Source: Alphaproteobacteria bacterium (GTDB lineage Bacteria; Pseudomonadota; Alphaproteobacteria; JAVJRE01). From it: a stretch of 64,000 nt of DNA. Below the pieces are notes generated by a model. That model saw only the letters and a program-made list of their open reading frames with translations. It was not told where the DNA came from and did no database searches. This document shows, in pieces, positions 23,053-36,790 of this stretch. The DNA is taken from the NCBI GenBank assembly GCA_040218575.1, contig JAVJRE010000005.1, positions 26,419-90,418 of the forward strand, given 5' to 3'. The translations under genes were made by a program, and so were the position numbers. Position 1 is the first letter of the stretch. Each line of letters starts with the position of its first letter.

Positions 23053-23652
23053 ATGATCCTTTTCGACACGCTGCGTTCCGGCAACGCCTGGAAAGTGCGC
23101 CTGTTGTTGCGCAACATGGGGCAGGACTTCGAACGCAAGACCCTGGACCTGGCCAAGGGCGACACCAAGACGCCTGAATATCTGGCCATGAGCCCGCGCG
23201 GCCAGGTGCCGGTAATGCAGTTCGATGACGGCACCTATCTGGCCCAGTCGCCAGCCATCCTGGCCCGCATCGCCGAGGGCACGACATATTTTCCGGCCGA
23301 CCCGGTGACCCGCAACAAGATTCTGGAGTGGATGTTCTTTGAACAGTGCGACCTGCTGAAGCCGCTGGCCATTCCCCGCTTCATCGTCGCTCTGGCTGGC
23401 CAGGGCGAAGAAAAGGCCGATGTGGTGAAACAATTCCAGGACCAGGGCTATCCCATGCTGGCCATAATGGAAAAGCGTCTGGCGAAAAGCGATTTCCTGG
23501 TGAATGGCTATTCGATCGCCGACATCAATCTCTACCCCTATACCAGCATGGCGCATCTGGGGAATTACGACATGGACCGCTTTCCGGCCATTCAAGCCTG
23601 GATCAAGCGGGTCGAATCACAGCCGGGCTGGGTGCCGTTGATCGAAGAGTAG
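23053..23652 (+). CDS. Glutathione S-transferase family protein
   Basis: 199 aa. Thioredoxin-like N-domain (SGNAWKVRLLL..., GQVPVMQFDDGTYLAQSPAIL) followed by a helical C-domain. Confidence 0.75.
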   Translation: MILFDTLRSGNAWKVRLLLRNMGQDFERKTLDLAKGDTKTPEYLAMSPRGQVPVMQFDDGTYLAQSPAILARIAEGTTYFPADPVTRNKILEWMFFEQCDLLKPLAIPRFIVALAGQGEEKADVVKQFQDQGYPMLAIMEKRLAKSDFLVNGYSIADINLYPYTSMAHLGNYDMDRFPAIQAWIKRVESQPGWVPLIEE

Positions 23653-23692: not shown

Positions 23693-25351
23693 ATGACCAT
23701 GGCTGCCACGCGTACGCTTCGCCGCCCCAACGTCAATATCAAGGCCACCACCGGCACCCAGTTGCGCTGCAAGAGCTGGCGGGCGGAGTCCATCCTCCGC
23801 ATGCTGGAGAACAATCTGGAGAATGGCGAGAATCCGGACGAGCTGGTGATCTATGCCGGCCGGGCCAAGGCAGCGCGGGACTGGGAAAGCTATGACCAGA
23901 TCGTCGCCGCGCTGAAAATACTGGAAGAAGACCAGACCCTGGTCATGCAGTCGGGCAAGCCGCTTGGCGTCTTCCGCACCCAGAAGTCCATGCCCATGGT
24001 GATCATGGCGTCGGGCGGTGTGGTCGGCGCCACCAACCGCGACCCCATTCACCAGGAACTGGAAGAAAAAGGCCTGACCATCATGCCCGGCATGACGGCG
24101 GCCGCATGGCAGTACATCGGCAGCCAGGGCATCCTGCAGGGCACCTACGAGACCTTCATGGCGGCGGCGCGGGAGAACTTCGGCGGGACGCTGGAAGGCC
24201 GCATGGTGCTGACCGCCGGCTGCGGCGGCATGGGCGGCGCCCAGCCGCTGGCCGGCAAGCTGGCCGGTGCGGCGACTCTGGTTCTGGACGTGGATGAAGA
24301 CCGCATTCAGCGGCGCATCGACTCCGGCTATTGCGACGTCATGACCCACGACCTGGACGAAGCCCTGAAGTGGATCGACGAAGCCAAGAAGGCGCGCAAG
24401 GGCAAGTCGGTGGGCCTGGTGGCCAATGTGGGTGATATCTATCCGATCCTGCTGGACCGCAACATCATTCCTGAGATCGTCACCGACCAGACCACCGTAC
24501 GACCGGGCCGCGGCTACGTCCCGCAGGGCATGACCTCGGACGAGGCCTACGCCATGTTCGACACGGACCGGGAACAGGTGGTGCGGCGGGGCCACGCCAC
24601 CATCAAGATCCATGCCCAGTGCATGATGGAGTTCGAGAAGCGGGGATCAATCGTCTTTGAGTATGGCAACGGTCTGCGCCTGGAGGCGGAAGCCGCCGGC
24701 TATCCCGAGGCCCGCAAGATGCGCGGCTTCATCGAGCGCTATGTGCGGACGCTGTTCGAAGAGGGCAAGGGCCCGTCGCGCTGGCTCGCCATCTCCGGCG
24801 ACCCGCACGACATCGAAGTGGTTGACGACATCATCGAGGCCAACTGGTCGGACAACAGCTCCATCGTCCAGTGGATCCGCCAGGCCCGCGAGCACGTGCA
24901 CTTCACCGGCCTGCCGGCGCGTATCGGCTGGCTCGGCTATGGCGAGCGCGCCAAACTGGCCAAGCTGGTGAATCAGGCGGTGAAAGAGGGCAAGACCAAG
25001 GGCCCCATCGCCTTCACCCGCGACCATCTGGACTCCGGCTCCACCGCCATCCCCTTCCGCGAGAACGAGAAGATGATGGATGGCTCCGACCGTATCGCCG
25101 ACTGGCCGATCCTGAACGGACTCATCAACGCCTGTTCCGGCGCCGACGTGATTGCCATTCACGGTATCGGCTCGGCCGGTCAGACCACGGTGGCCGACGG
25201 CAGCGATGATGCCGGCGAGCGGCTGGAGCGGGTGATGACCACCGACACCGGCATCGGCGTCCTGCGCCATGCGGAAGCCGGCTATGAGACCTCCAAGAAA
25301 CTGGCCAATGAGTCTGGCCTGGCGGCGTCTGTCGCCGGCCGCAAATACTAA
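23693..25351 (+). CDS. Urocanate hydratase-family protein, divergent paralog 1
   Basis: 552 aa. WRAESILRMLENNL, QSGKPLGVFRT, GMTAAAWQYIGSQGILQGTYETF, GCGGMGGAQPLA (NAD site), TRDHLDSGS and GVLRHAEAGY match the urocanase fold. Several loops differ from canonical HutU as I remember it. Confidence 0.85.
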   Translation: MTMAATRTLRRPNVNIKATTGTQLRCKSWRAESILRMLENNLENGENPDELVIYAGRAKAARDWESYDQIVAALKILEEDQTLVMQSGKPLGVFRTQKSMPMVIMASGGVVGATNRDPIHQELEEKGLTIMPGMTAAAWQYIGSQGILQGTYETFMAAARENFGGTLEGRMVLTAGCGGMGGAQPLAGKLAGAATLVLDVDEDRIQRRIDSGYCDVMTHDLDEALKWIDEAKKARKGKSVGLVANVGDIYPILLDRNIIPEIVTDQTTVRPGRGYVPQGMTSDEAYAMFDTDREQVVRRGHATIKIHAQCMMEFEKRGSIVFEYGNGLRLEAEAAGYPEARKMRGFIERYVRTLFEEGKGPSRWLAISGDPHDIEVVDDIIEANWSDNSSIVQWIRQAREHVHFTGLPARIGWLGYGERAKLAKLVNQAVKEGKTKGPIAFTRDHLDSGSTAIPFRENEKMMDGSDRIADWPILNGLINACSGADVIAIHGIGSAGQTTVADGSDDAGERLERVMTTDTGIGVLRHAEAGYETSKKLANESGLAASVAGRKY

Positions 25352-25414: not shown

Positions 25415-27064
25415 ATGGCGGTCGGCACGCTGAAACGTAAGAACGTCAGTATCAAAGCCACCACCGGCACTCAGTTGCGCTGCAAGAACTGGCGGGCGGA
25501 GTCCATTCTCCGCATGCTGGAGAACAATCTGGAGAATGGCGAGAATCCGGACGAGCTGGTGATCTATGCCGGCCGGGCCAAGGCGGCGCGGGACTGGGAA
25601 AGCTATGATCAGATCGTCGCTACCCTGAAGTCGCTGGACGAAGACCAGACCCTCATCATGCAGTCGGGCAAGCCGATCGGTGTCTTCCGCACCCAGAAGA
25701 CTGCGCCCATGGTGGTCATGGGCAATGGCAACGTCGTTGGTATGGACTTCGGCGATCCGATCCGTCAGGAGCTGGAGGATAAGGGCCTGACCATCATGCC
25801 CGGCATGACGGCGGCCGCATGGCAGTACATCGGCAGCCAGGGCATTCTGCAGGGCACCTACGAGACCTTCATGGCGGCGGCGCGGGAGAACTTCGGCGGG
25901 ACGCTGGAAGGCCGCATGGTGCTGACCGCCGGCTGCGGCGGCATGGGCGGCGCCCAGCCGCTGGCCGGCAAGCTGGCCGGTGCGGCAACTCTGGTGCTGG
26001 ACGTGGACGAGAAGCGCATTCAGCGGCGCATCGACTCCGGCTATTGCGACGTCATGACTCATGATCTGGACGAAGCGCTCAAACTGATCGACGAAGCCAA
26101 GAAGGCGCGCAAGGGCAAGTCGGTGGGCCTGGTGGCCAATGTGGGTGACATCTACCCGATCCTGCTGGAGCGCAACATCACACCGGACATCGTCACCGAC
26201 CAGACCACAGTGTGGGCCGGTCGCGGTTATGTCCCCCAGGGCATGACCTCGGACGAGGCCGTGGAAATGTTCCGCACCAACCGCGAGGAAGTCATCAAAC
26301 GCGGCCATGCGACCATCAAGATCCATGCCCAGTGCATGATGGAGTTCGAGAAGCGGGGATCAATCGTCTTCGAATATGGCAACGGCCTGCGCCTGGAGGC
26401 GGAAAAGGCGGGTTATCCCGAAGCCCGCCAGATGCGCGGCTTCATCGAGCGCTATGTGCGGACCTTGTTCGAGGAGGGCAAAGGTCCGTCGCGCTGGCTG
26501 GCCATCTCCGGCGACCCGCACGACATCGAGGTAATTGACGACATCATCGAGGCCAACTGGTCGGACAACAGTTCCATCGTCCAGTGGATCCGCCAGGCCC
26601 GCGAGCATGTGCACTTCACCGGTCTGCCAGCGCGTATCGGCTGGCTTGGCTATGGTGACCGGGCCAAGCTGGCCAAGCTGGTGAATCAGGCGGTGAAAGA
26701 GGGCAAGACCAAGGGTCCCATCGCCTTCACCCGCGACCACCTGGACTCCGGCTCCACCGCCATCCCCTTCCGCGAGAACGAGAAGATGAAGGACGGCTCC
26801 GACCGCATCGGTGACTGGCCGATCATCAACGCCCTGCTGAACACCTGCTCCGGCGCCGACGTGATTGCCGTCCACTCCGGCATGAGCGCCGGCCAAACCA
26901 CCGTGGCCGATGGCAGCGACTCGGCCAGCGAAAGGCTGGAAGCGGTGATGAACGCGGACACCGGCATCGGCGTCCTGCGCCATGCGGAAGCCGGCTATGA
27001 GACGTCGATGGATCTGGCCAATTCGACCGGCCTGGCAGCGACCATCCCGGACCGCAAATACTAG
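25415..27064 (+). CDS. Urocanate hydratase-family protein, divergent paralog 2
   Basis: 549 aa, collinear with paralog 1 (about 88% identical by manual alignment). AGGAGG lies upstream of the ATG at 25415. Confidence 0.85.
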   Translation: MAVGTLKRKNVSIKATTGTQLRCKNWRAESILRMLENNLENGENPDELVIYAGRAKAARDWESYDQIVATLKSLDEDQTLIMQSGKPIGVFRTQKTAPMVVMGNGNVVGMDFGDPIRQELEDKGLTIMPGMTAAAWQYIGSQGILQGTYETFMAAARENFGGTLEGRMVLTAGCGGMGGAQPLAGKLAGAATLVLDVDEKRIQRRIDSGYCDVMTHDLDEALKLIDEAKKARKGKSVGLVANVGDIYPILLERNITPDIVTDQTTVWAGRGYVPQGMTSDEAVEMFRTNREEVIKRGHATIKIHAQCMMEFEKRGSIVFEYGNGLRLEAEKAGYPEARQMRGFIERYVRTLFEEGKGPSRWLAISGDPHDIEVIDDIIEANWSDNSSIVQWIRQAREHVHFTGLPARIGWLGYGDRAKLAKLVNQAVKEGKTKGPIAFTRDHLDSGSTAIPFRENEKMKDGSDRIGDWPIINALLNTCSGADVIAVHSGMSAGQTTVADGSDSASERLEAVMNADTGIGVLRHAEAGYETSMDLANSTGLAATIPDRKY

Positions 27065-27087
27065 AGTCAGACGGGCTTAGCGAAGAC

Positions 27088-27117
27088 GGGCGCCGGAACA
27101 CCACCGGCGCCCTTTTT
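27088..27117 (+). terminator. Rho-independent terminator after urocanase paralog 2
   Basis: GGGCGCCGG-aacacca-CCGGCGCCC followed by TTTTT. Confidence 0.8.
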
Positions 27118-27130
27118 CGTTGCTATTTAA

Positions 27131-27145
27131 TAGGCGACCGGTCTA
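27131..27145. promoter_or_regulatory. Candidate TetR operator 1 (TAGGCGACCGGTCTA)
   Basis: 11 nt upstream of the tetR-family ATG. Matches site 2 at 13 of 15 positions, and the shared flank continues as (C/T)TTTT. Confidence 0.45.
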
Positions 27146-27155
27146 CTTTTTCCTG

Positions 27156-27740
27156 ATGGCAGGACAAGATACCCGTATGCGACTGATCGAAGCCGGCGCC
27201 CAGTTGATCTGGGCCCAGGGCTTCCACGCTACCGGACTGGCTGAAATCCTCGCGGCAGCCGAAGTTCCCAAGGGCAGTTTCTACCATTTCTTCGCGGACA
27301 AGGCCGCCTTTGGCCTGGCGGTTATTGACTGGTTTGCCGCAGAGCGCCTGACTGATCTGCAGGACGCCCTGGCCCGTGACGATCTGAAACCGCTTGACCG
27401 CCTGCGGGCCTATTACCAGGACAGCCACCGCACTCAGATGGCGCTCGGCCCGGAGAATGGCAGCCCCCTTGGGAATCTGGCCCTGGAGCTGGGGCGGCCC
27501 GGCAATCCCTTCGCCGCCGCCATCACCATCGCCTTGCAGCGCGAGCAGACTCTTGTCATGCACTGCCTGGCAGAGGCAAAGGACAGCGGCCAGTTGCCGG
27601 CCGGGGTCGAACCGGAAGGAACCGCCCGCTATCTTCAGGCGGCCTGGGAGGGCGCGGTGCTGCAGATGAAAGTGACCGGCGGCGCAGAACCCCTGGATGC
27701 TTTTCTGGCACTAAGCTTCGGCCGCCTGTTACAGTCTTGA
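27156..27740 (+). CDS. TetR/AcrR-family transcriptional regulator
   Basis: N-terminal HTH: RLIEAGAQLIWAQGFHATGLAEILAAAEVPKGSFYHFFADK. Confidence 0.85.
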   Translation: MAGQDTRMRLIEAGAQLIWAQGFHATGLAEILAAAEVPKGSFYHFFADKAAFGLAVIDWFAAERLTDLQDALARDDLKPLDRLRAYYQDSHRTQMALGPENGSPLGNLALELGRPGNPFAAAITIALQREQTLVMHCLAEAKDSGQLPAGVEPEGTARYLQAAWEGAVLQMKVTGGAEPLDAFLALSFGRLLQS

Positions 27741-27748
27741 AGCATAAC

Positions 27749-27763
27749 TAGACGACTGGTCTA
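27749..27763. promoter_or_regulatory. Candidate TetR operator 2 (TAGACGACTGGTCTA, near-perfect palindrome)
   Basis: 6 of 7 arm positions pair around a central C. Lies between the tetR stop and the ABM gene ATG at 27782. Confidence 0.45.
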
Positions 27764-27781
27764 TTTTCAATGGAGAGTTCT

Positions 27782-28069
27782 ATGAGCCGCATCGCCCTTG
27801 TTGTCACCGTGGATGTCGCAGACGGTCAGCGTGACGCGCTGCTGGACATCCTGCGCCATCATGCGGCACGCAGCCTGTCGCTGGAGACCGGCTGCCTGCA
27901 GTTCGACATTCTGCTGCCGGAGGACAAGCCCGGCCGTATCATGATCTTCGAGTTGTACCGCAACCCCGCCGCCCTGGAGGCACACCGCGCCTCCGAACAC
28001 CTGAAGCGCTGGCGGACGGAATCAGCCAGCATTCCGCACACCATCGACGTGGTGGTCTGCCAGGCGTGA
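27782..28069 (+). CDS. Antibiotic-biosynthesis-monooxygenase (ABM, ferredoxin-like) family protein
   Basis: 95 aa: RIALVVTVDV...CLQFDILLPEDKPGRIMIFELYRNPAALEAHRASEHL. GGAGAG precedes the ATG at 27782. Confidence 0.7.
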   Translation: MSRIALVVTVDVADGQRDALLDILRHHAARSLSLETGCLQFDILLPEDKPGRIMIFELYRNPAALEAHRASEHLKRWRTESASIPHTIDVVVCQA

Positions 28070-28791
28070 CTTCCGGGCACAGTGGCGGCGACGGCGGCGC
28101 GCCAGATGGCGGCGGATGCGACCGGTGCGACGGTCGGCGCGGAGACCAGGGCGGCGGTTCGGACCATAGTCCCCGACCAACGCGGAACTGGGCGGCATAC
28201 TATGCCGGGCGCGGCCTGCGCCCGCCCCATGACACAGTGTGCTTTGTCCTAGACCAGGCAGCCGCCCCGCAGGGCAAGCGAACGGCCGCACAGGACGCGC
28301 CGCTGGCGATGGACCTCGGCTGTGGGGCCGGGCGCGACAGCCTGGCCCTGCTGGCCGCCGGCTGGCGTGTCATCGCCATTGACCGCCAGCGCGAGGCCAT
28401 GGCTGAGCTGGAGCGCCGCGTACCGCCGGCGCTTCGCCACCGCCTGGAGCCGCGAACGGGCGACATTCGGACCGAACCATGGGGCAGCGCTGATCTGGTG
28501 GTGGCCAGCTTTGTCCTGCACACCCTGGCGCCGCCCGACTTTCGGGCTCTGTGGGCGACCATTCCGGCAAGCCTGCGTCCGCGCGGCCGTTTTGCCGGAC
28601 ATTTCATCGGTAAGCACGACACCTGGGCGGGACGTGATGACATGTCCACCTTCAGCCGGGACGATCTGCACCACCTGCTGAACGGGCTCGAGGTCGAGTT
28701 TTGGGCCGAACGGGAGAATGACGGCGAGACGGCAACCGGCCGCGCCAAGCACTGGCATGTCCACCACATCGTTGCCCGGCGCACCGCCTGA
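28066..28791 (+). CDS. Class I SAM-dependent methyltransferase (TehB-like), Gly/Asp-rich N-terminus
   Basis: Motif I is AMDLGCGAGRDSLALLAAGWRVIAIDRQ. GTG at 28066 overlaps the ABM stop (GTGA). The exact start is uncertain. Confidence 0.65.
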   Translation: MTSGHSGGDGGAPDGGGCDRCDGRRGDQGGGSDHSPRPTRNWAAYYAGRGLRPPHDTVCFVLDQAAAPQGKRTAAQDAPLAMDLGCGAGRDSLALLAAGWRVIAIDRQREAMAELERRVPPALRHRLEPRTGDIRTEPWGSADLVVASFVLHTLAPPDFRALWATIPASLRPRGRFAGHFIGKHDTWAGRDDMSTFSRDDLHHLLNGLEVEFWAERENDGETATGRAKHWHVHHIVARRTA

Positions 28792-28815
28792 CCGCGACGG
28801 CGCATCGGCGAGCCG

Positions 28816-30135
28816 TCAGCCCCAGCGCACGGCCTCGGTCGCCATCCAGGCCGCCTCGCCTTGTGTTGTCTGGCGGTCCAGCGCCTTGTTGCGCCAGGGA
28901 AATCGACCGAACAAAGCGATGGCCTCATGATGGTGGCGGGCGCTGGCCTGAGCGAATCGATGCTCCGGTTCCTCGCCGAGACCAGCAAACAGACGAATCG
29001 ATATCTCCTGATCGGCCAGGTCTTCGCTGTGCTCAAAGGGCAGATAGAAGAACCAGCGATGAACCGGCAGCACATGGCGGTCGAAGCCATGCATGATCGC
29101 ATGTCGCGCCACCTGGCGCGCCTTTGCGTCGGCCGCATGAGCCGCCGACGTGCCGCGGTAGAGGTGACGGGAGACCTGATCCAGCAGAACAATCAAGGCC
29201 AGGCATAAGGCGGGCTTTGCCGCCCACTCGTCCAACCGGCCAGCCACCGCCGCGCCGTGCAGATCGCTGAATGCCGCACGGATGGCATCATCCTGCTGGC
29301 GCCCGTGCTCGAACCACACAACGCGCCGGGCGCCATAGCCGGTTTCACCGGGCCTGAGAAACCAGAACGTCAGCACGTCCCGTGCCGCCGCCGGTACGTC
29401 CCCGTCCTGCAACGCGTCCGCCACCGCATCGCCAAAGACCGAGGCGGCGGGGCGCGGCACCGGCGGCAGAACGATGGGCCCCTGATCGGGCTCGTCACCG
29501 GGCGATTCGCCCCAGCGAATCCGTGTGGCGATCTGATAGGCCCGCTCTTCCGCTGTTGATTCGCGGCCCAGTGCGTCATTGCGCAACGGATAGCGACCGA
29601 AGCGGAAGACGGTCTCCTGGTGGGCGATGGCGCCGGCAATGGCGGAGAGGCTTTCGGAATCCTCCCCCAGCTCGCGGTACAGACCGACCGAACGATCCTG
29701 ATCGGCCAGGTCCTCGCTGTGCTCGAACGGCAGATAGAAAAACCAGCGCTGGACCGGCAGCACATGACGATCCCAACCGCGCAGCACCGCATGGCGGGCC
29801 AGCGCCCGGGCGTCGGCGTCACGGGCGAAGGCGCGCCCCTCGCCGCGGAACATGTTCCGTGAGAACTGATCGTAAAGAATGATGTTGGCGAGACAAGTGG
29901 CCGGATGGTCCCGCCAATGGGCCAGCGCACCGGCCTCGGCCTCAGCAAAGGTTGCAGAAAAACGCTGCCGGATAGTGGAGTCTATGGCATCACCGCCGGC
30001 AAACCACAGACGGCGGGAGACGCCCCACAGGGAGGAGTCCGGCCGACCGAACCAGAAGGTCAGGATGTCGGCGGCCGTATGGGGCAGGTCATCCAGGTCA
30101 TGGGACAGCCGGTCTGTCACCCACGCACCCATCAT
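28816..30135 (-). CDS. Protein with two tandem DUF924 domains
   Basis: Two copies of the pattern ILTFWF...WF...LDQFSRN(M/L)(F/Y)RG...F(F/L)YLPFEHSEDL...FGR(Y/F)P(L/W)RN. ATG at 30135 overlaps the upstream stop (ATGA). Confidence 0.75.
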   Translation of the reverse strand: MMGAWVTDRLSHDLDDLPHTAADILTFWFGRPDSSLWGVSRRLWFAGGDAIDSTIRQRFSATFAEAEAGALAHWRDHPATCLANIILYDQFSRNMFRGEGRAFARDADARALARHAVLRGWDRHVLPVQRWFFYLPFEHSEDLADQDRSVGLYRELGEDSESLSAIAGAIAHQETVFRFGRYPLRNDALGRESTAEERAYQIATRIRWGESPGDEPDQGPIVLPPVPRPAASVFGDAVADALQDGDVPAAARDVLTFWFLRPGETGYGARRVVWFEHGRQQDDAIRAAFSDLHGAAVAGRLDEWAAKPALCLALIVLLDQVSRHLYRGTSAAHAADAKARQVARHAIMHGFDRHVLPVHRWFFYLPFEHSEDLADQEISIRLFAGLGEEPEHRFAQASARHHHEAIALFGRFPWRNKALDRQTTQGEAAWMATEAVRWG

Positions 30136-30806
30136 GACGCGGATGAACCCGATGCGTTGCGTCGCGCCGCCTGTTCGGCCCGCCACCGGGCGCGCTGCTC
30201 CTCCAGCTCCTTCAGATACTGTGCCTCTTCAGCGGTTGTCTGGCGGCCGAGCGCGGCATTGCGGTAAGGAAAGCGGCCGAAGCGCGCGATCTCGTCATGG
30301 TGGCGCTGAGCCTGGCGCATGGTCATGTCACCGTCACCGTCAGGCGAGCCGTCCACCAGCGATCCGAACAGCTCCAGGGCACGCTTCTGAATGGCGATGT
30401 CTTCGCCATGCATGAAAGGCATGTAGAGGAAGAGCCGCTCATAATAGGACAACGCCGTATCGCCGCCGCTGGCGATTGCCGCGCCGGCCAGTTGGCGCGC
30501 CCGTGCATCCGTTTGGAAGGCACGGCCGTCATCGCGGAACATGTTGCGCGAGAACTGATCGAACAGAATGACCAGGGCGAGCGTCCCGCGCGGCGACCCG
30601 GTCAGCTCATCCAGTTGCCCGGCGGCGGCGGCTTCATAGGCCGGTCCGAAGCGGCGGCGGATTTCCTCGTCCACCGCCGGACCGCCGGCGAACCAGTGGT
30701 CGCGGCGGCGGCCATGTTCGCCATGGCCGGCCGGCGCGAACCAATAGTCCAGAACGTCCCGCGCCACCGCCGCAGGATCGAGCGGCGCAGCGGTCTCAGC
30801 GCTCAT
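30132..30806 (-). CDS. DUF924 family protein (single domain)
   Basis: VLDYWF...HWFAGG...LFDQFSRNMFRD...FLYMPFMHGEDI...FGRFPYRNAALGR. ATG at 30806 overlaps the upstream stop (ATGA). Confidence 0.75.
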   Translation of the reverse strand: MSAETAAPLDPAAVARDVLDYWFAPAGHGEHGRRRDHWFAGGPAVDEEIRRRFGPAYEAAAAGQLDELTGSPRGTLALVILFDQFSRNMFRDDGRAFQTDARARQLAGAAIASGGDTALSYYERLFLYMPFMHGEDIAIQKRALELFGSLVDGSPDGDGDMTMRQAQRHHDEIARFGRFPYRNAALGRQTTAEEAQYLKELEEQRARWRAEQAARRNASGSSAS

Positions 30807-31165
30807 GCGGCGACCAGCGCGCGCAGGCCTTCGAGCCTGAGTGGCAACGGCACACCGAGCCACAGACAATTGACCGCATGGTCGGCGTAAGCGTCGTCTG
30901 TATTGGGGTGAACCAGGATGTCCAGGTCGCGGCGGTTCAGCATCAGCCAGGGCACCAGCCGGTCAAACTGATCATTGGCGAAGGCCACCTGATACATGGA
31001 CTGAGGGTGCGGCCCGACGGGCGCCTCGCGCCAGCGGCCCATGACCACCCGGAACCTCTGCTCGATTTCCTGGCGCAGCCACTCCGCCACCGGCCGGCTG
31101 GCTCCGTCGTAGTAGATGTGCGCGTGAAAACCGTCGATATCGGACTCGTCGCGTGGCTGATCCAT
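30803..31165 (-). CDS. DOPA 4,5-dioxygenase-family protein
   Basis: 120 aa: FHAHIYYD...PVGPHPQSMYQVAF...VPWLMLNRRDLDILVHPNT.D...DH...LWLG. GGAGAGG RBS before the ATG at 31165. Confidence 0.65.
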   Translation of the reverse strand: MDQPRDESDIDGFHAHIYYDGASRPVAEWLRQEIEQRFRVVMGRWREAPVGPHPQSMYQVAFANDQFDRLVPWLMLNRRDLDILVHPNTDDAYADHAVNCLWLGVPLPLRLEGLRALVAA

Positions 31166-31306
31166 GCCGCCTCTCCGCTGTATTCCACTGTGTTCGGCCC
31201 CATTGTCCCATCCGGCTGATACCCGGGTCCAGACCGGGCGGAGCGACCTTTCGGCCTGCGCTACCATCGCCTAGGGTCCGCCCGGGCAGCGTTTGGGGAG
31301 CGATTG

Positions 31307-32356
31307 ATGACCGTATTGATCACCGGTGGCGGCGGCTTTGTCATGGCCAACCTGGCGCGGCTGTGGCTGGAGTCCACGCCCGATGGCCAATCGCCTGACG
31401 TGGTGGTGCTGGACGCGGCCGCACCCGACCCAGTATTCCGGCGCGCCTTTGCCGATGCGGGCGACCGGCTGACCTATGTTCAGGCCGACGTTACGCGGCC
31501 GGAAAGCTGGAACCATGCGGTCGCCGGCCGCACCATCCGCGCCATCGTCCATGCCGCCACCATCACGCCGAATACCCAGGGGCCACCGGAGAAAGCCAAG
31601 GTGGTGCCAGAGCGCGATATTCCGGCGCGCATTCTCGACGTCAACATCATGGGCACCGTGCAAATGCTGGAGTTCGCACGTCAGTGCCCTGACCTGAAGC
31701 GGTTCATCTATGTCAGTTCCGGGTCGGTCTATGGCGATCATGGACCGGACATCGCTGGTGCGCCGTTGCCGGAGGACGGATGGGTCGAACCGCACGAGCT
31801 GTACGCTGTTTCCAAATACAGTTCGGAGCTGATCACCCGACGCTATGCGGAACTGTTCGGCCTGAGTGCCGTGTCGGTCCGCCTGTCCGGCGTGTTCGGC
31901 CCGTTCGACCGGGCCACACCGGCCCGCACCTATGAGTGCGCACCGAACCGTGTTGCGCATCTGGCGCTCGCCGGGCGCACCATCCGGGTCGACCGCCTGG
32001 ACGCCATCGGTGACTGGATCAGCGCGCCGGACATTGCCCGTGCGCTGGTCCACCTGCTGCTGGCGGAGTCGCCCCGTCACTCCGTTTACAATATCGCCCA
32101 GGGCCGCACCGATACCGTGGCTGATCTGCTGCGCCATACCCGGGCGGTGCTGCCCCAGACCCGCTGGCAGGAGAGCGCGGCGGACAGCGCCGACGTGCTG
32201 CAGGGCGGCCCCTATACCGGCGGCCGCTGGGGTGCCTATGACATCGCGCGGCTCAGGGACGAGTTCGGCTGGCAGCCAACACCGCTGGCCGCGGCGATGG
32301 CCGAGTACATAGGCTGGATCCGGCAGATCGAGATGCCGGCCCGGGCATTACGCTAA
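31307..32356 (+). CDS. NAD-dependent epimerase/dehydratase (extended SDR) family protein
   Basis: VLITGGGGFVMANL Rossmann motif and YAVSKYSSE catalytic YxxxK. GGGGAG lies 6 nt before the ATG at 31307. Confidence 0.75.
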   Translation: MTVLITGGGGFVMANLARLWLESTPDGQSPDVVVLDAAAPDPVFRRAFADAGDRLTYVQADVTRPESWNHAVAGRTIRAIVHAATITPNTQGPPEKAKVVPERDIPARILDVNIMGTVQMLEFARQCPDLKRFIYVSSGSVYGDHGPDIAGAPLPEDGWVEPHELYAVSKYSSELITRRYAELFGLSAVSVRLSGVFGPFDRATPARTYECAPNRVAHLALAGRTIRVDRLDAIGDWISAPDIARALVHLLLAESPRHSVYNIAQGRTDTVADLLRHTRAVLPQTRWQESAADSADVLQGGPYTGGRWGAYDIARLRDEFGWQPTPLAAAMAEYIGWIRQIEMPARALR

Positions 32357-32581
32357 AGACCGGGCAAAAGCCCAAAAACGGACACGCCCTTGCCATAATC
32401 CCTATTAATCATAGCTTTAACAAAGAAGGTTGCAATACAGCTACAATTCATGGTTGTATGTTGCGTTGTTAACCCTAAGAACGGCCGCACAAGCGGTTGT
32501 TATCCACAGGAGGGGGCCCCTGTAGTCGGGGCCGGCAAGGCGTCTCGACCCTGGTGCGATGCAGCCGGGATGGAGTGAGCC

Positions 32582-33865
32582 ATGAAAGCCACGCGAAGAG
32601 CCCCCACGGTCCCAGCCGCCCAAGCTCCAATTGCTGAGGGCACCGCCGCGACACCGGCTGTCGTCGTCATGCCCACGCCCCGGCCAAGCAATCCATCAGC
32701 CGACGCGCCAGCCCTGGATGCGATTCTCGACTCGCTGCAGGAAGGGGTTGCCGTGTTCGACGCGAGGGACCGGCTGGTGTGCTGCAACAACCGCTTCCGC
32801 GATCTCTTTCCCCATCTTGGCCAGATGATCCGACCCGGTGTCCGTTTCAGGAGCCTGGTCCGGGTGGAGACCCGCGCCGCGGCGCGCAAACAGGCCCGTC
32901 GCACCGGATCGGTGGAAGAGCGGCTGCGTCAGCGTATGCTTAGACATGAACACCCGTCCGGCGCCTTCGAGCAGCAACTGCCCGATGACCGCTGGATCTG
33001 GGTCCGCGAACGAAAGCTGGACGATGGCACGACGATTTCCACCTATGTGGATATCAGCGATGTCAAACACCGTCAGGCCGCGCTTGAAACAGCGCGTCTG
33101 GAGGCCGAGGCGGCCAGTGACAGAAGCCGCCGCCTGCTGGCCGATGTGACCCATGAGTTGCGTACGCCGGTGACGGCCATCATGGGATTTTCCGATCTGA
33201 TGCGCGAAGGCCATATGGGCCCGCTGAACAACCCACGCCTGGCCGAGTATCTCAAGGACATTCACGATTCAGGCGAGCACATGCTGGCCCTGATCAACGA
33301 CCTGCTGGATCACGCCAAGCTGGAGGCCGGCGCCGTCCGGCTGACCGAATCGGAAGTGAGCCTGGCTGACCTGGCCACAGAATGTACGCGCATGCTGAAG
33401 CCGGACGCCGACCGCCGCGGCCTGACTCTGTCCCTCAAAGTCCAGCCGCTGCCTCCGTTTATCGTTGATCACCGAAGCTTGCGGCAAGTACTGCTCAACC
33501 TCCTGTCCAACGCCCTCAAGGCGACACCGCCCGGCGGTCGCGTCAGCCTGCGCATTGCCAGGGCGGCCAACGGGGACGGCCACCTGGTGGTGCGCGATAG
33601 CGGGCGCGGCATGACGGCCCGCGAGATCGCCATCGCCTTCACGCCCTTCGGCCAGATCACCGGCAGCGATAATTCAGGCAGCGACTCCGGAACCGGCCTC
33701 GGCCTGCCCATCGCCCGCCGCCTGGTCGAGCTGCATGGCGGACGGCTGGATATGACCAGCCGGCCCGGACACGGCACCACGGCGCTCGTGGTGCTGCCGG
33801 CGGCGCGGGCACGGGGCGTCGCGGCCAACCACGACATGCCGGCGGACCAAAAAGAAGCGGGCTAG
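32582..33865 (+). CDS. Cytoplasmic PAS-domain sensor histidine kinase (no adjacent response regulator)
   Basis: PAS-like LDSLQEGVAVFDARDRLVCCNNRF, H-box THELRTPVTAIMGFSDL, N-box LLNLLSNALKA, G-boxes RDSGRGM and GTGLGLPI. No TM segments. Confidence 0.85.
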   Translation: MKATRRAPTVPAAQAPIAEGTAATPAVVVMPTPRPSNPSADAPALDAILDSLQEGVAVFDARDRLVCCNNRFRDLFPHLGQMIRPGVRFRSLVRVETRAAARKQARRTGSVEERLRQRMLRHEHPSGAFEQQLPDDRWIWVRERKLDDGTTISTYVDISDVKHRQAALETARLEAEAASDRSRRLLADVTHELRTPVTAIMGFSDLMREGHMGPLNNPRLAEYLKDIHDSGEHMLALINDLLDHAKLEAGAVRLTESEVSLADLATECTRMLKPDADRRGLTLSLKVQPLPPFIVDHRSLRQVLLNLLSNALKATPPGGRVSLRIARAANGDGHLVVRDSGRGMTAREIAIAFTPFGQITGSDNSGSDSGTGLGLPIARRLVELHGGRLDMTSRPGHGTTALVVLPAARARGVAANHDMPADQKEAG

Positions 33866-33957
33866 CCCTGAGGGCCGCGACCGGGGCCGACAGCAGAACG
33901 GCGGGAGGCTAGGATCGTTTGATCGATTTCCCCCGCCTCCTACGGACGGACCTGCCA

Positions 33958-35202
33958 ATGGCCCTGCTGGAAGACAATACCGCGTGCGAGCGGCCGACCT
34001 TCACAACCCATCTGGAGTGCAGCCGCACCGGCGCCACAAGGCCGGCTGACGCGCTGGTGGGACTGTCCGATGCGGGCGCGCCGTTGCTGGTGCGCTATGA
34101 CCTGGCGGCTGTCGGTCGCGCCGTGGACCGCGACGCCCTGCAACGGCGCGCACCGGACTTCTGGCGCTATCGCGAATTGCTGCCGGTGCGCCGGACCGAG
34201 GATATCGTATCCCTGGGCGAGGTGATGACGCCGCTGGTCAGCCTGCCACGCTGGGGTGGAGAGCTGGGCGCCAGGCGCCTGACGGTCAAGGATGAAAGCC
34301 GCCTGCCCACCGGGTCATTCAAGGCGCGGGGTCTGGCCATGGCGGTGAGCATGGCGAAAGCCCTTGGCGTCACGCGCATGGCCATGCCGACCAATGGCAA
34401 TGCGGGGGCGGCACTTGCCGCCTATGGCCGTCGCGCCGGCATGGAGACCTATGTCTTCTGCCCGGACGACACGCCGGAGGTGAATGTACGGGAGATTGCC
34501 CTGCAGGGCGCCCGCGTGTGGCGAGTCAATGGTCTGATCAATGACTGCGGCCGGATCGTCGGCGAGGGCAAGGAGCCCATGGGCTGGTTCGACACATCGA
34601 CCCTGAAGGAGCCCTATCGCATCGAAGGCAAGAAGACCATGGGCCTGGAGCTGGCGGAGCAGCTCGGCTGGACCCTGCCGGACGCCATCTTCTATCCCAC
34701 CGGCGGCGGCACCGGCCTGATCGGCATGTGGAAGGCCTTTGACGAGATGGAGCAGCTTGGCTGGATCGGCGCCGGGCGACCGCGCATGGTGGCGGTCCAG
34801 GCCAGCGGCTGCGCCCCCATGGTCCGCGCCTGGGAAGACGGTGCCGACAGCGCCCCGGTCTGGCCGGACGCGCACACGGTAGCGGCGGGCATCCGGGTGC
34901 CGGTGGCCATCGGCGATTTCCTTATCCTGCGGGCGGTGCGCGACAGCGGCGGCTTTGCCATCGCCGTGGACGATTCGGATATTCTGGCGGCACAAGCGCA
35001 GATCGCCGCGGCGGACGGCATGCTGCTGGGACCGGAGGGCGCGGCCACGGCCGCCGCCTGGCGCCAGGCCGTAAGCCGCGGGCTGATCCACAAGGATGCC
35101 CATGTGGTTCTGTTCAACTGTGGCTCACCGCTCAAATACCCCATGCCGGCGGCGCCAGCGCGGCTCGACCGCCATGGTCCGATCGCCTATGAGCGGCTCT
35201 GA
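33958..35202 (+). CDS. Threonine-synthase-like PLP-dependent (fold type II) enzyme
   Basis: PTGSFKARG PLP-lysine motif, TNGNAGAALAAY, YPTGGGTGLIGMWKAF. The N-terminus resembles the short ThrC type. The start could be 33919 (TTG) or 33958 (ATG). Confidence 0.7.
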   Translation: MALLEDNTACERPTFTTHLECSRTGATRPADALVGLSDAGAPLLVRYDLAAVGRAVDRDALQRRAPDFWRYRELLPVRRTEDIVSLGEVMTPLVSLPRWGGELGARRLTVKDESRLPTGSFKARGLAMAVSMAKALGVTRMAMPTNGNAGAALAAYGRRAGMETYVFCPDDTPEVNVREIALQGARVWRVNGLINDCGRIVGEGKEPMGWFDTSTLKEPYRIEGKKTMGLELAEQLGWTLPDAIFYPTGGGTGLIGMWKAFDEMEQLGWIGAGRPRMVAVQASGCAPMVRAWEDGADSAPVWPDAHTVAAGIRVPVAIGDFLILRAVRDSGGFAIAVDDSDILAAQAQIAAADGMLLGPEGAATAAAWRQAVSRGLIHKDAHVVLFNCGSPLKYPMPAAPARLDRHGPIAYERL

Positions 35203-36790
35203 GAAGGCGGCAGGCCCGCTGGCAGACAATCAGGCCAGCCAGGCCCGGACGGTCCGCCTGCTGGCTGACCCGGCGACCCATGGCGGCGTCCCGGTCACGG
35301 TAATCGAGACCCATGTGCACCGGGTCTTTCTGGCGGGAGAACGGGCCTACAAGCTCAAACGCGCCGTCCGCTATCCCTATCTCGACTACAGCACCGTCGA
35401 TCGGCGACATGCCATGGCCGGGGCCGAGGTCGGGATCAATCGCCGCACGGCACCCGAGCTCTATCTCGGCCTGACGCCCGTGGTGCAGCGCGGTACGGGC
35501 CTGGCTCTCGGCCGTCTGACGGAGCCCGATGCGACCGTGCCGGAGGCGGACAGCGTGGTGGACTGGCTGGTCACCATGCGTCGGTTCGACAATGACTGTC
35601 TTATGTCCGCCATGGCCGAGGCCGGCCGGCTGAACCTGGCGACCGTCAACCGCCTGGTGGATGAACTGGCGCACTTCCATGGCTCCGTGCAACCGCGCCG
35701 GCAGGACAATACGACGGCTCGCTTTGCCTCCAGCCTGGAGGAATCTCTGGACGAGCTGCGCAGCGCACCGCATCTCTTTCCCTCCACCGACGTCGCGGCG
35801 CTGAGCCAGGCGGCAAGGCAGGCTATGGCCCGCTTCGGACCGATGATGGACCAGCGCGGACGGGACGGTTTCGTTCGCCACTGTCATGGCGATCTGCATC
35901 TGCGCAATGTCTATGTGACGGCGGACGGACGGCCCGTGCCGTTCGACGCGGCGGAGTTCAGCATTGATCTGGTGACGGTAGACGTGTGGGACGATCTGGC
36001 CTACCTGCTGATGGACCTGTGGCATCGCGGCGCCCGCCATCTGGCCAATGGCGCCATGAACCGTTACGCGGAGAACACCGCTGACTATGCGGGAATGGCG
36101 CCGCTGCCTCTGTATCTGGCGGCACGCGCAGTGATTCGGGCGAAGGTTGCGGCCAGCGCCCATGCACTGGCGCCCCCTGGCGGCCGGGCGGCTCTGGCCC
36201 ACGAAGCCCGTGCCTATCTGCGGAGCGCCCGCCTGTTTCTGGCGCCGCGCCCGCCACGGCTGGCGGCCATCGGTGGCCTCTCGGGCACCGGCAAGACGAC
36301 CCTGGCCCGGGCGCTGGCCCCTGACCTGGGCACACCGCCGGGCGCCCTGGTCCTGCGTAGCGATGTGACCCGCAAGATCATGGCCGGGGCCGGCCGGCTG
36401 GACCGCCTGCGGCCGGATTCCTATACGCCGCAGAGCAGCGCCGCAGTCTATGGACGGTTGTGGCAGATGGCGGCCGATGGCCTGGCGCGTGGTCAGAGCG
36501 TCATCGTTGATGCGGTCCATGGCCGGCCGCAGGAGCGAACCGCCATTGCCGACGTGGCGCGGCACGCCGGCACGCCCTTTGCCGGACTGTGGCTGGAGGC
36601 GGATACGGCAACCCTGACGTCGCGCATCGCCGGTCGAACCGGTGATGAATCCGACGCAACCCCGGAGGTGGTTGCCATACAGGCCGCCCGTGATACCGGC
36701 CCGATGACATGGTCAAGGCTGGACGTATCGGGGGAGCGCAGCGACGCCGTCCGTTCCGCCTGGGCCGCGCTGCGCCGCGCCGGTCTATAG
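35189..36790 (+). CDS. Bifunctional APH-fold phosphotransferase / P-loop (AAA_33-like) kinase protein
   Basis: N-domain with Brenner motif HCHGDLHLRNV. C-domain with Walker A GLSGTGKTTLARALA. The ATG at 35189 overlaps the preceding gene by 14 nt. Confidence 0.7.
   Translation: MSGSEKAAGPLADNQASQARTVRLLADPATHGGVPVTVIETHVHRVFLAGERAYKLKRAVRYPYLDYSTVDRRHAMAGAEVGINRRTAPELYLGLTPVVQRGTGLALGRLTEPDATVPEADSVVDWLVTMRRFDNDCLMSAMAEAGRLNLATVNRLVDELAHFHGSVQPRRQDNTTARFASSLEESLDELRSAPHLFPSTDVAALSQAARQAMARFGPMMDQRGRDGFVRHCHGDLHLRNVYVTADGRPVPFDAAEFSIDLVTVDVWDDLAYLLMDLWHRGARHLANGAMNRYAENTADYAGMAPLPLYLAARAVIRAKVAASAHALAPPGGRAALAHEARAYLRSARLFLAPRPPRLAAIGGLSGTGKTTLARALAPDLGTPPGALVLRSDVTRKIMAGAGRLDRLRPDSYTPQSSAAVYGRLWQMAADGLARGQSVIVDAVHGRPQERTAIADVARHAGTPFAGLWLEADTATLTSRIAGRTGDESDATPEVVAIQAARDTGPMTWSRLDVSGERSDAVRSAWAALRRAGL

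Follow-up and report, generated by a model that had tools for sequence, protein, structure and literature searches.

Can a compact gene cluster in an uncultured alphaproteobacterium tell us what DUF924 proteins do? The 64,000-nucleotide (nt) stretch analysed here (the window, from contig JAVJRE010000005.1 of assembly GCA_040218575.1) carries on its minus strand three consecutive genes: gene A, of the DOPA 4,5-dioxygenase family (PF08883); gene B, with one DUF924 domain; and gene C, in which two such domains (C1 and C2) are fused in tandem (Table 1). The original prediction, drawn from the sequence alone, took the tight coupling of these genes and the triple DUF924 dosage to suggest a multi-subunit enzyme or pathway with the dioxygenase-family protein as one part. 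For a family as large as DUF924, whose function is unknown, a robust genomic linkage would be useful; the locus offers none, since its dioxygenase-family neighbour appears to be recent and dispensable. The reading that we prefer, with a probability of about 0.65, is that of a lineage-restricted operon of an uncultured alphaproteobacterium in which B and C form the selected unit and A is a dispensable accessory.

Genes B and C are maintained where gene A is lost

The cluster was also found in a sister lineage, represented by loci from two different JGI samples (L084 and L085), in which an epimerase gene, a remnant of A, B, C and an ABM gene are present. The sister B and C proteins are 78% and 79% identical to those of the window, respectively, and the 4-nt B/C overlap is kept. 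Gene A is a pseudogene in this lineage, with a 72-nt deletion of the FHAHIYYD region and two 1-nt deletions that cause frameshifts; the invariant Pro of the GPHP motif is now Leu and the ATGA overlap with B is gone. These lesions are identical in the L084 and L085 contigs. For B, C1 and C2, the ratio of non-synonymous to synonymous substitution rates (dN/dS) between the window and the sister lineage is 0.123, 0.126 and 0.122, respectively (0.150 for the neighbouring ABM gene), so that B and both halves of C are held by selection. Since A has decayed while B and C are intact and under purifying selection, the stable unit is B + C, and the adjacency, overlap and purifying selection of this pair are seen in both known lineages.

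These observations bear on a multi-component reading of the locus, in which A, B and C would be subunits of one enzyme, or consecutive steps of one pathway, with A as a metal-dependent catalyst acting on an aromatic or heteroaromatic substrate and the DUF924 modules as its stoichiometric partners. In its favour, two 4-nt overlaps tie the three genes together in the window, and A is intact there with all of its conserved His residues. The loss of A in the sister lineage, beside B and C genes that remain under purifying selection, argues against it.

Gene A is not the only loss in the sister lineage (L084 3121-3252, 3529-3672; window 27120-28791). No TetR gene is present there, the methyltransferase gene is reduced to a 44-amino-acid (aa) remnant, and urocanase comes straight after ABM. 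The losses of A, of the methyltransferase and of TetR have therefore gone together, with B, C, ABM, the epimerase and urocanase kept. This joint loss could be regional decay, or could be a hint that the three genes concerned form a set. The proposals of an aromatic or heteroaromatic substrate, and of a tie to the convergent urocanase/TetR/ABM/methyltransferase block, found no backing: no evidence links the DUF924 genes to either, and the sister lineage has lost TetR and most of the methyltransferase, two members of that block.

In a strain close to that of the window (L086, ~97% nt identity), 13 substitutions and a 9-nt in-frame deletion fall within 41 nt of gene A (window 31064-31104, first helix), a local hypervariable or recombined patch. 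No indel was found in this region in any of 21 A homologues, and B and C of L086 show scattered changes only.

The PF08883-DUF924 pairing is not conserved

One genome per species (185,579 species) was searched with a profile built from A and 20 homologues, giving 597 confirmed loci. The best 80 of these (50-67% identity to A, mostly from Alphaproteobacteria, Binatia and Stellaceae metagenome-assembled genomes (MAGs)) were analysed with 6 kb on each side. No DUF924 domain was detected within this distance at any of the 80 loci using a hidden Markov model (HMM), even at E = 10, and the same model found the modules of the window itself at 1e-97 to 1e-206. Equally, tblastn with B and C returned nothing from these loci. 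From the DUF924 side, PF08883 was found beside DUF924 in 0/80 of the metagenome loci closest to B (37-55% identity), the DUF924 genes P0180 and P0195 lie in unrelated contexts, and no gene family recurs in more than seven loci around 80 DUF924 loci. Conservation of the association in related genomes, on which the original prediction had staked itself, is thus absent from both surveys.

Among the 80 PF08883 loci, the recurrent neighbours were a monomeric isocitrate dehydrogenase (21/80), an M15 peptidase (17/80), an SDR protein (11/80) and amidase and luciferase-like genes, a set that has the look of local synteny and not of a pathway. A Rieske oxygenase alpha subunit was near in 6/80. The closest outgroup homologue of A (P0003, 68% identity; L173 3513-5896, JGI 3300062132) is flanked by a Rieske oxygenase (alpha and beta) on one side and a 3-hydroxyanthranilate 3,4-dioxygenase on the other, the only aromatic-metabolism context found here for the PF08883 family.

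That some A homologues adjoin aromatic-ring enzymes, as at P0003 and at the six loci with a Rieske alpha subunit, would suit the multi-component reading. Set against this are the absence of DUF924 from all 80 PF08883 loci, the absence of PF08883 from all 80 DUF924 loci and the pseudogene in the sister lineage, and we consider it quite unlikely that the three genes form one enzyme or pathway.

Gene C is a genuine and old fusion of two DUF924 domains

An identical 439-aa product of gene C is encoded on four Logan contigs from three sequencing runs, and two NCBI MAGs, both labelled Alphaproteobacteria bacterium, contain the same block as the window. The orthologue in the two JGI metagenome samples (438 aa, 79% identity) has an uninterrupted frame. 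The original prediction had allowed that the fused open reading frame (ORF) might be an artefact of assembly or of a frameshift joining two separate genes, and adjacent yet separate DUF924 genes do exist elsewhere (L123, one metagenome locus). Recurrence of the fusion in independent assemblies, with both halves and the junction maintained at a dN/dS of about 0.12, rules this out for practical purposes. The start of C differs among gene callers: NCBI places it at a GTG at 30186 (456 aa, 55-nt overlap with B), and Logan and JGI at the ATG at 30135 (439 aa, ATGA overlap). The start conserved in the sister lineage is the ATG with the ATGA overlap.

C1 and C2 are 52% identical to one another, and either of them shares 43-44% identity with B; with the usual single-domain DUF924 proteins from other taxa, each of the three modules shares 47-54%. 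A neighbour-joining tree of 278 domains places C1, C2 and their sister-lineage copies in one clade (66/100 bootstraps) with B outside. This clustering, together with the 52% identity, suggests a duplication older than the split of the two lineages, and the sequence comparison points to C as the product of an old internal duplication and fusion. In a 25-codon patch shared by C1 and C2, DRHVLPV(Q/H)RWFFYLPFEHSEDLADQ, the DNA is 92% identical compared with 58% overall, a sign, perhaps, of strong constraint or of a conversion tract.

The tandem is also rare. A HMMER scan of 1.84 billion representative proteins gave 6590 DUF924 matches (clusters at 50% identity) from bacteria and eukaryotes. Both domains of C are covered by a single match, the sister protein P0122 (763 bits); the next match scores 182 bits, and among the top matches no second DUF924-DUF924 tandem, expected at about twice the single-domain score, was found. 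The 14 longer top matches that were checked are all fusions to unrelated domains, none of them DUF924-DUF924.

The fusion partners of DUF924 are very varied. They comprise a DUF938 methyltransferase, MFS, alpha/beta-hydrolase, HAD, enoyl-CoA hydratase, GDSL, GNAT, SnoaL with a haem-oxygenase-like domain, glyoxalase (VOC), LuxC, Mur ligase, cupin (Cupin_2), Fe-S, adenylosuccinate-lyase-like and nitroreductase domains and, from precomputed Pfam annotation, a 4HBT thioesterase. Several partners in the multi-domain proteins (P0123-P0131, P0262-P0401), which are fusions as given by gene calls, handle coenzyme A (CoA) esters. The occasional fusion to small metal-enzyme folds (glyoxalase/VOC, Cupin_2, haem-oxygenase-like) might be cited for a link between DUF924 and a metalloprotein such as A; because hydrolases, CoA enzymes, ligases and transporters are partners as well, these cases are not specific.

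The three DUF924 modules retain the invariant residues of the family

Gene B matches the Pfam profile PF06041 (DUF924, which we take to be equivalent to COG3803) with E = 6.6e-61 and 206 bits, and gene C matches it in two stretches with E = 3.4e-113 and 376 bits (cut-off 27 for both). NCBIfam has no model that matches A, B or C. The predicted architecture, a single domain in B and an internal duplication in C, is confirmed by these matches and by direct repeats in the DNA with a spacing of 680-690 nt, which mark out the three modules. The predicted motifs stand with small corrections. The string WFFYLPFEHSEDLADQ does occur twice in C, and both copies have W where W or F had been proposed; the motif LDQ(F/V)SR(N/H), said to occur in all modules, is shared as DQ(F/V)SR(N/H), its leading L being found only in C2 (F in B, Y in C1).

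The residues that are invariant in the family (W22, D83, Q84, R87, R91, H133, E135, R178, P180, R182, N183 and R188, B numbering) are kept in B, C1 and C2. Departures from the family consensus were found elsewhere. The His of the FPHRN motif, which is His in 83% of 282 DUF924 family sequences, is replaced by Tyr in B, Leu in C1 and Trp in C2, with identical replacements in the sister lineage. Since ~17% of members also lack this His, the Tyr/Leu/Trp series marks a variant and not exclusion from the family. C2 has His in place of Asn in DQFxRN, and the usual C-terminal PGSxF of DUF924 is replaced here by RW-containing tails. A non-His FPHRN motif was also considered as the mark of a PF08883-linked subfamily and rejected, one such protein being P0180 with its unrelated context.

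The AlphaFold2 (AF2) model of B is a single all-helical domain with a predicted local distance difference test score (pLDDT) of 95 and a predicted template modelling score (pTM) of 0.90. That of C has two helical domains and a low-confidence linker (pLDDT 88, pTM 0.78), from an alignment that is deep at the first domain only, all single-domain homologues having been aligned to C1. The structure 2I6H was the sole significant fold match of the B model (E = 1.3e-11; template modelling (TM) score 0.90-0.93, normalised to the target) and was also found by sequence with B and C (2.5e-33 and 7.2e-25). Nothing else in the fold search was significant, the remainder showing weak resemblance to helical repeats at E > 0.1.

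Two roles can be weighed against this structural background. The invariant D-Q-x-x-R, H-x-E, R-x-P-x-R-N and R residues most plausibly form the lining of a pocket that takes a small, probably anionic, ligand. A catalytic or small-ligand site is what the grouping of charged and polar invariant positions suggests. Alternatively, B and C could be non-catalytic adaptors or chaperones of the helical-repeat (TPR-like) type, in which case the fusion would enlarge a protein-binding scaffold and A would be unrelated. The all-alpha fold would be compatible with such a role, the weak fold matches include designed helical repeats, 14-3-3, Tom20 and Fis1 (E > 0.1, TM < 0.4), and promiscuous fusion to many enzymes of unrelated kinds is what a general accessory module might show. 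Those fold similarities are not significant, however, and most of the invariant positions (D, Q, R, H, E, R, R, N and R) are charged or polar, a pattern more usual in a catalytic or small-ligand site than in a repeat scaffold, which makes an adaptor role unlikely.

Gene A is an intact member of the PF08883 family

Gene A matches PF08883 over profile positions 1-105 of 106 (E = 2.6e-32, 111.7 bits, cut-off 25) and has no other match in Pfam. The motifs FHAHIYYD, PVGPHP, LVHPNT and DH are all present, in agreement with the predicted membership of the DOPA 4,5-dioxygenase family, so that profile searches upheld this assignment as well as that of DUF924. All 44 columns that are invariant among 21 homologues are retained, including H14, H16, Y18, Y19, H53, H86 and H96. 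In the PDB, sequence matches were found to 2PEB (2.9e-43) and to 2NYH/2P8I (5.3e-28), and the conserved His-rich motifs HAHxYY, GPHP, VHP and DH of gene A align with those of 2PEB and 2NYH.

Locus layout and gene coupling

The features of the locus are listed in Table 1. Sequence reading bore out the predicted arrangement of three minus-strand genes linked by ATGA overlaps, together with its coordinates.

Table 1 Positions of the genes, modules and intergenic features of the A-B-C locus in the window.
Feature	Position	Strand	Description
Gene A	30803..31165 (ATG 31165)	-	120 aa, PF08883, intact
Gene B	30132..30806	-	224 aa, single DUF924 domain and C-terminal helical extension
Gene C	28816..30135	-	439 aa, tandem fusion of two DUF924 domains
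Module C1	29536..30066	-	about residues 24-200 of C; Pfam stretch 24-200
Linker C1/C2	29428..29514	-	about residues 208-236, Pro-rich; AF2 pLDDT 56-71, without secondary structure
Module C2	28834..29391	-	about residues 249-434 of C; HMM envelope
ATGA overlap, A stop and B start	30803..30806	-	read from sequence; lost in sister lineage
ATGA overlap, B stop and C start	30132..30135	-	read from sequence; kept in sister-lineage loci L084/L085
Shine-Dalgarno-like GGAGAGG	31170..31176	-	seven bases upstream of gene A ATG; read from sequence
Divergent intergenic region, A and NAD-dependent epimerase gene (31304-32356, +)	31166..31303	.	presumed promoter region; ORF map; partly conserved in sister lineage
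Spacer between convergent stops of C and methyltransferase gene	28792..28815	.	24 nt; short GACGGC...GCCGTC inverted repeat, read from sequence

A, B and C lie on the same strand with stop-start overlaps and without an internal terminator, and are presumably co-transcribed. Genes B and C lack a motif comparable to the GGAGAGG of gene A, which fits a restart at the ATGA overlaps. Terminator-like matches were found within the coding repeats only and did not exceed those in shuffled sequence (four, compared with 1.4 ± 1.5 expected), and the inverted repeat in the spacer downstream of C was not called by the terminator scan. Two terminator-like hairpins with T-rich runs (29742-29763 and 29052-29068, minus strand) occupy equivalent positions in C1 and C2, both inside the near-identical PV(Q/H)RWFFYL coding patch, and are probably a by-product of the coding repeat. 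A scan of 28600-31500 with the sigma-70 consensus, the divergent intergenic region included, gave no promoter-like site, and an Rfam scan of 27000-33000 gave no credible match.

The guanine + cytosine (GC) content of A, B and C is 0.65-0.67, compared with 0.665 for the window, and both GC and GC at third codon positions (GC3) agree with the neighbouring genes. Composition gives no sign of recent transfer, and horizontal transfer was rejected as an explanation of the locus.

Other genes in the window

Two tandem urocanase paralogues (23693-25351 and 25415-27064, both on the plus strand) share 88% protein identity and are a recent duplication; both are also present in an NCBI MAG (L167). A GST gene lies directly upstream of them (~23053-23652, plus strand). 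On the other side of the locus, past the epimerase and a PAS histidine kinase, genes for a pyridoxal-phosphate-dependent (PALP) enzyme, a fused APH/AAA_33 kinase-like protein, a Cupin_7 protein and a 2-oxoglutarate (2OG)-Fe(II) oxygenase (33919-36790 and beyond, plus strand) form a possible small-molecule modification cluster.

A selected DUF924 pair with a probably dispensable neighbour

In the reading that we prefer, an intact small PF08883 protein would have come to lie directly upstream of a diverged pair of DUF924 paralogues. B is a single module, and C an old tandem duplication held in one chain by a flexible linker of ~30 residues. A would be a recent neighbour, co-translated with B in this genome, and a losable accessory rather than an obligate subunit. 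B, C1 and C2 may then provide three non-equivalent, functional DUF924 sites, either as parts of a B/C hetero-assembly, in which C would be a covalent pseudo-dimer, or as isoforms whose specificity is altered.

Several points weigh against this account. In the window, A is intact, overlaps B and has kept every invariant residue, which makes a functional link in this particular organism conceivable. Its loss in the sister lineage may be general regional decay rather than independence from B and C, given that TetR and most of the methyltransferase were lost there as well. The cluster is known from two lineages only, and the conservation of the B-C pair therefore rests on a single comparison. The pTM of 0.78 merely hints at a defined domain arrangement in the model of C. 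Finally, the view that DUF924 has no assigned function agrees with its name in Pfam (2025), with the title of 2I6H and with the silence of NCBIfam, and a recent characterisation may have been missed.

A bolder combination of these elements would have B and the fused C form a heteromeric DUF924 complex with three non-equivalent ligand sites (Tyr/Leu/Trp for the family His), working in this organism with the PF08883 metalloprotein on one metabolite. We regard this as very unlikely; if true, the locus would be the first genetic handle on DUF924 function.

As it stands, the PF08883-DUF924 pairing is confined to this narrow group of uncultured Alphaproteobacteria and gives little insight into the role of DUF924. 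What is new is an architectural variant of the family, a rare covalent DUF924-DUF924 fusion beside a third paralogue, and this is a modest curiosity. The persistence of a covalent tandem next to another paralogue is a hint that DUF924 proteins may work as oligomers. B and C offer a pair of natural constructs for studying oligomerisation and ligand binding, and the substitutions of the FPHRN His flag a position that likely tunes specificity.

Comparison with known systems

The type member of PF08883 is, we assume, DodA of Amanita muscaria. The structures matched by gene A, 2PEB and 2NYH/2P8I, are bacterial structural-genomics entries named 'putative dioxygenase', and to our knowledge no activity is on record for the short (~120 aa) bacterial proteins of this family. 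The LigB-type DOPA 4,5-extradiol dioxygenases, which presumably include plant DODA and E. coli YgiD (Pfam PF02900), resemble gene A in the name of their reaction only. A lies outside that family, with PF08883 as its sole Pfam match, and betalain-type chemistry is therefore not to be transferred to it from the LigB-type enzymes. Elsewhere, PF08883 genes stand alone or beside varied genes and, unlike gene A, none of those in the 80 closest loci lies beside DUF924.

The only solved structure of DUF924, 2I6H, is that of Atu0120 from Agrobacterium tumefaciens, a 'protein of unknown function'. Like typical members of PF06041, B, C1 and C2 align with the profile from end to end and keep the DQxxR, PFxHxE and RxPxRN motifs. 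Typical DUF924 proteins are single-domain proteins of ~190-200 aa encoded by stand-alone genes without a conserved neighbourhood, whereas here three modules are carried by two overlapping genes.

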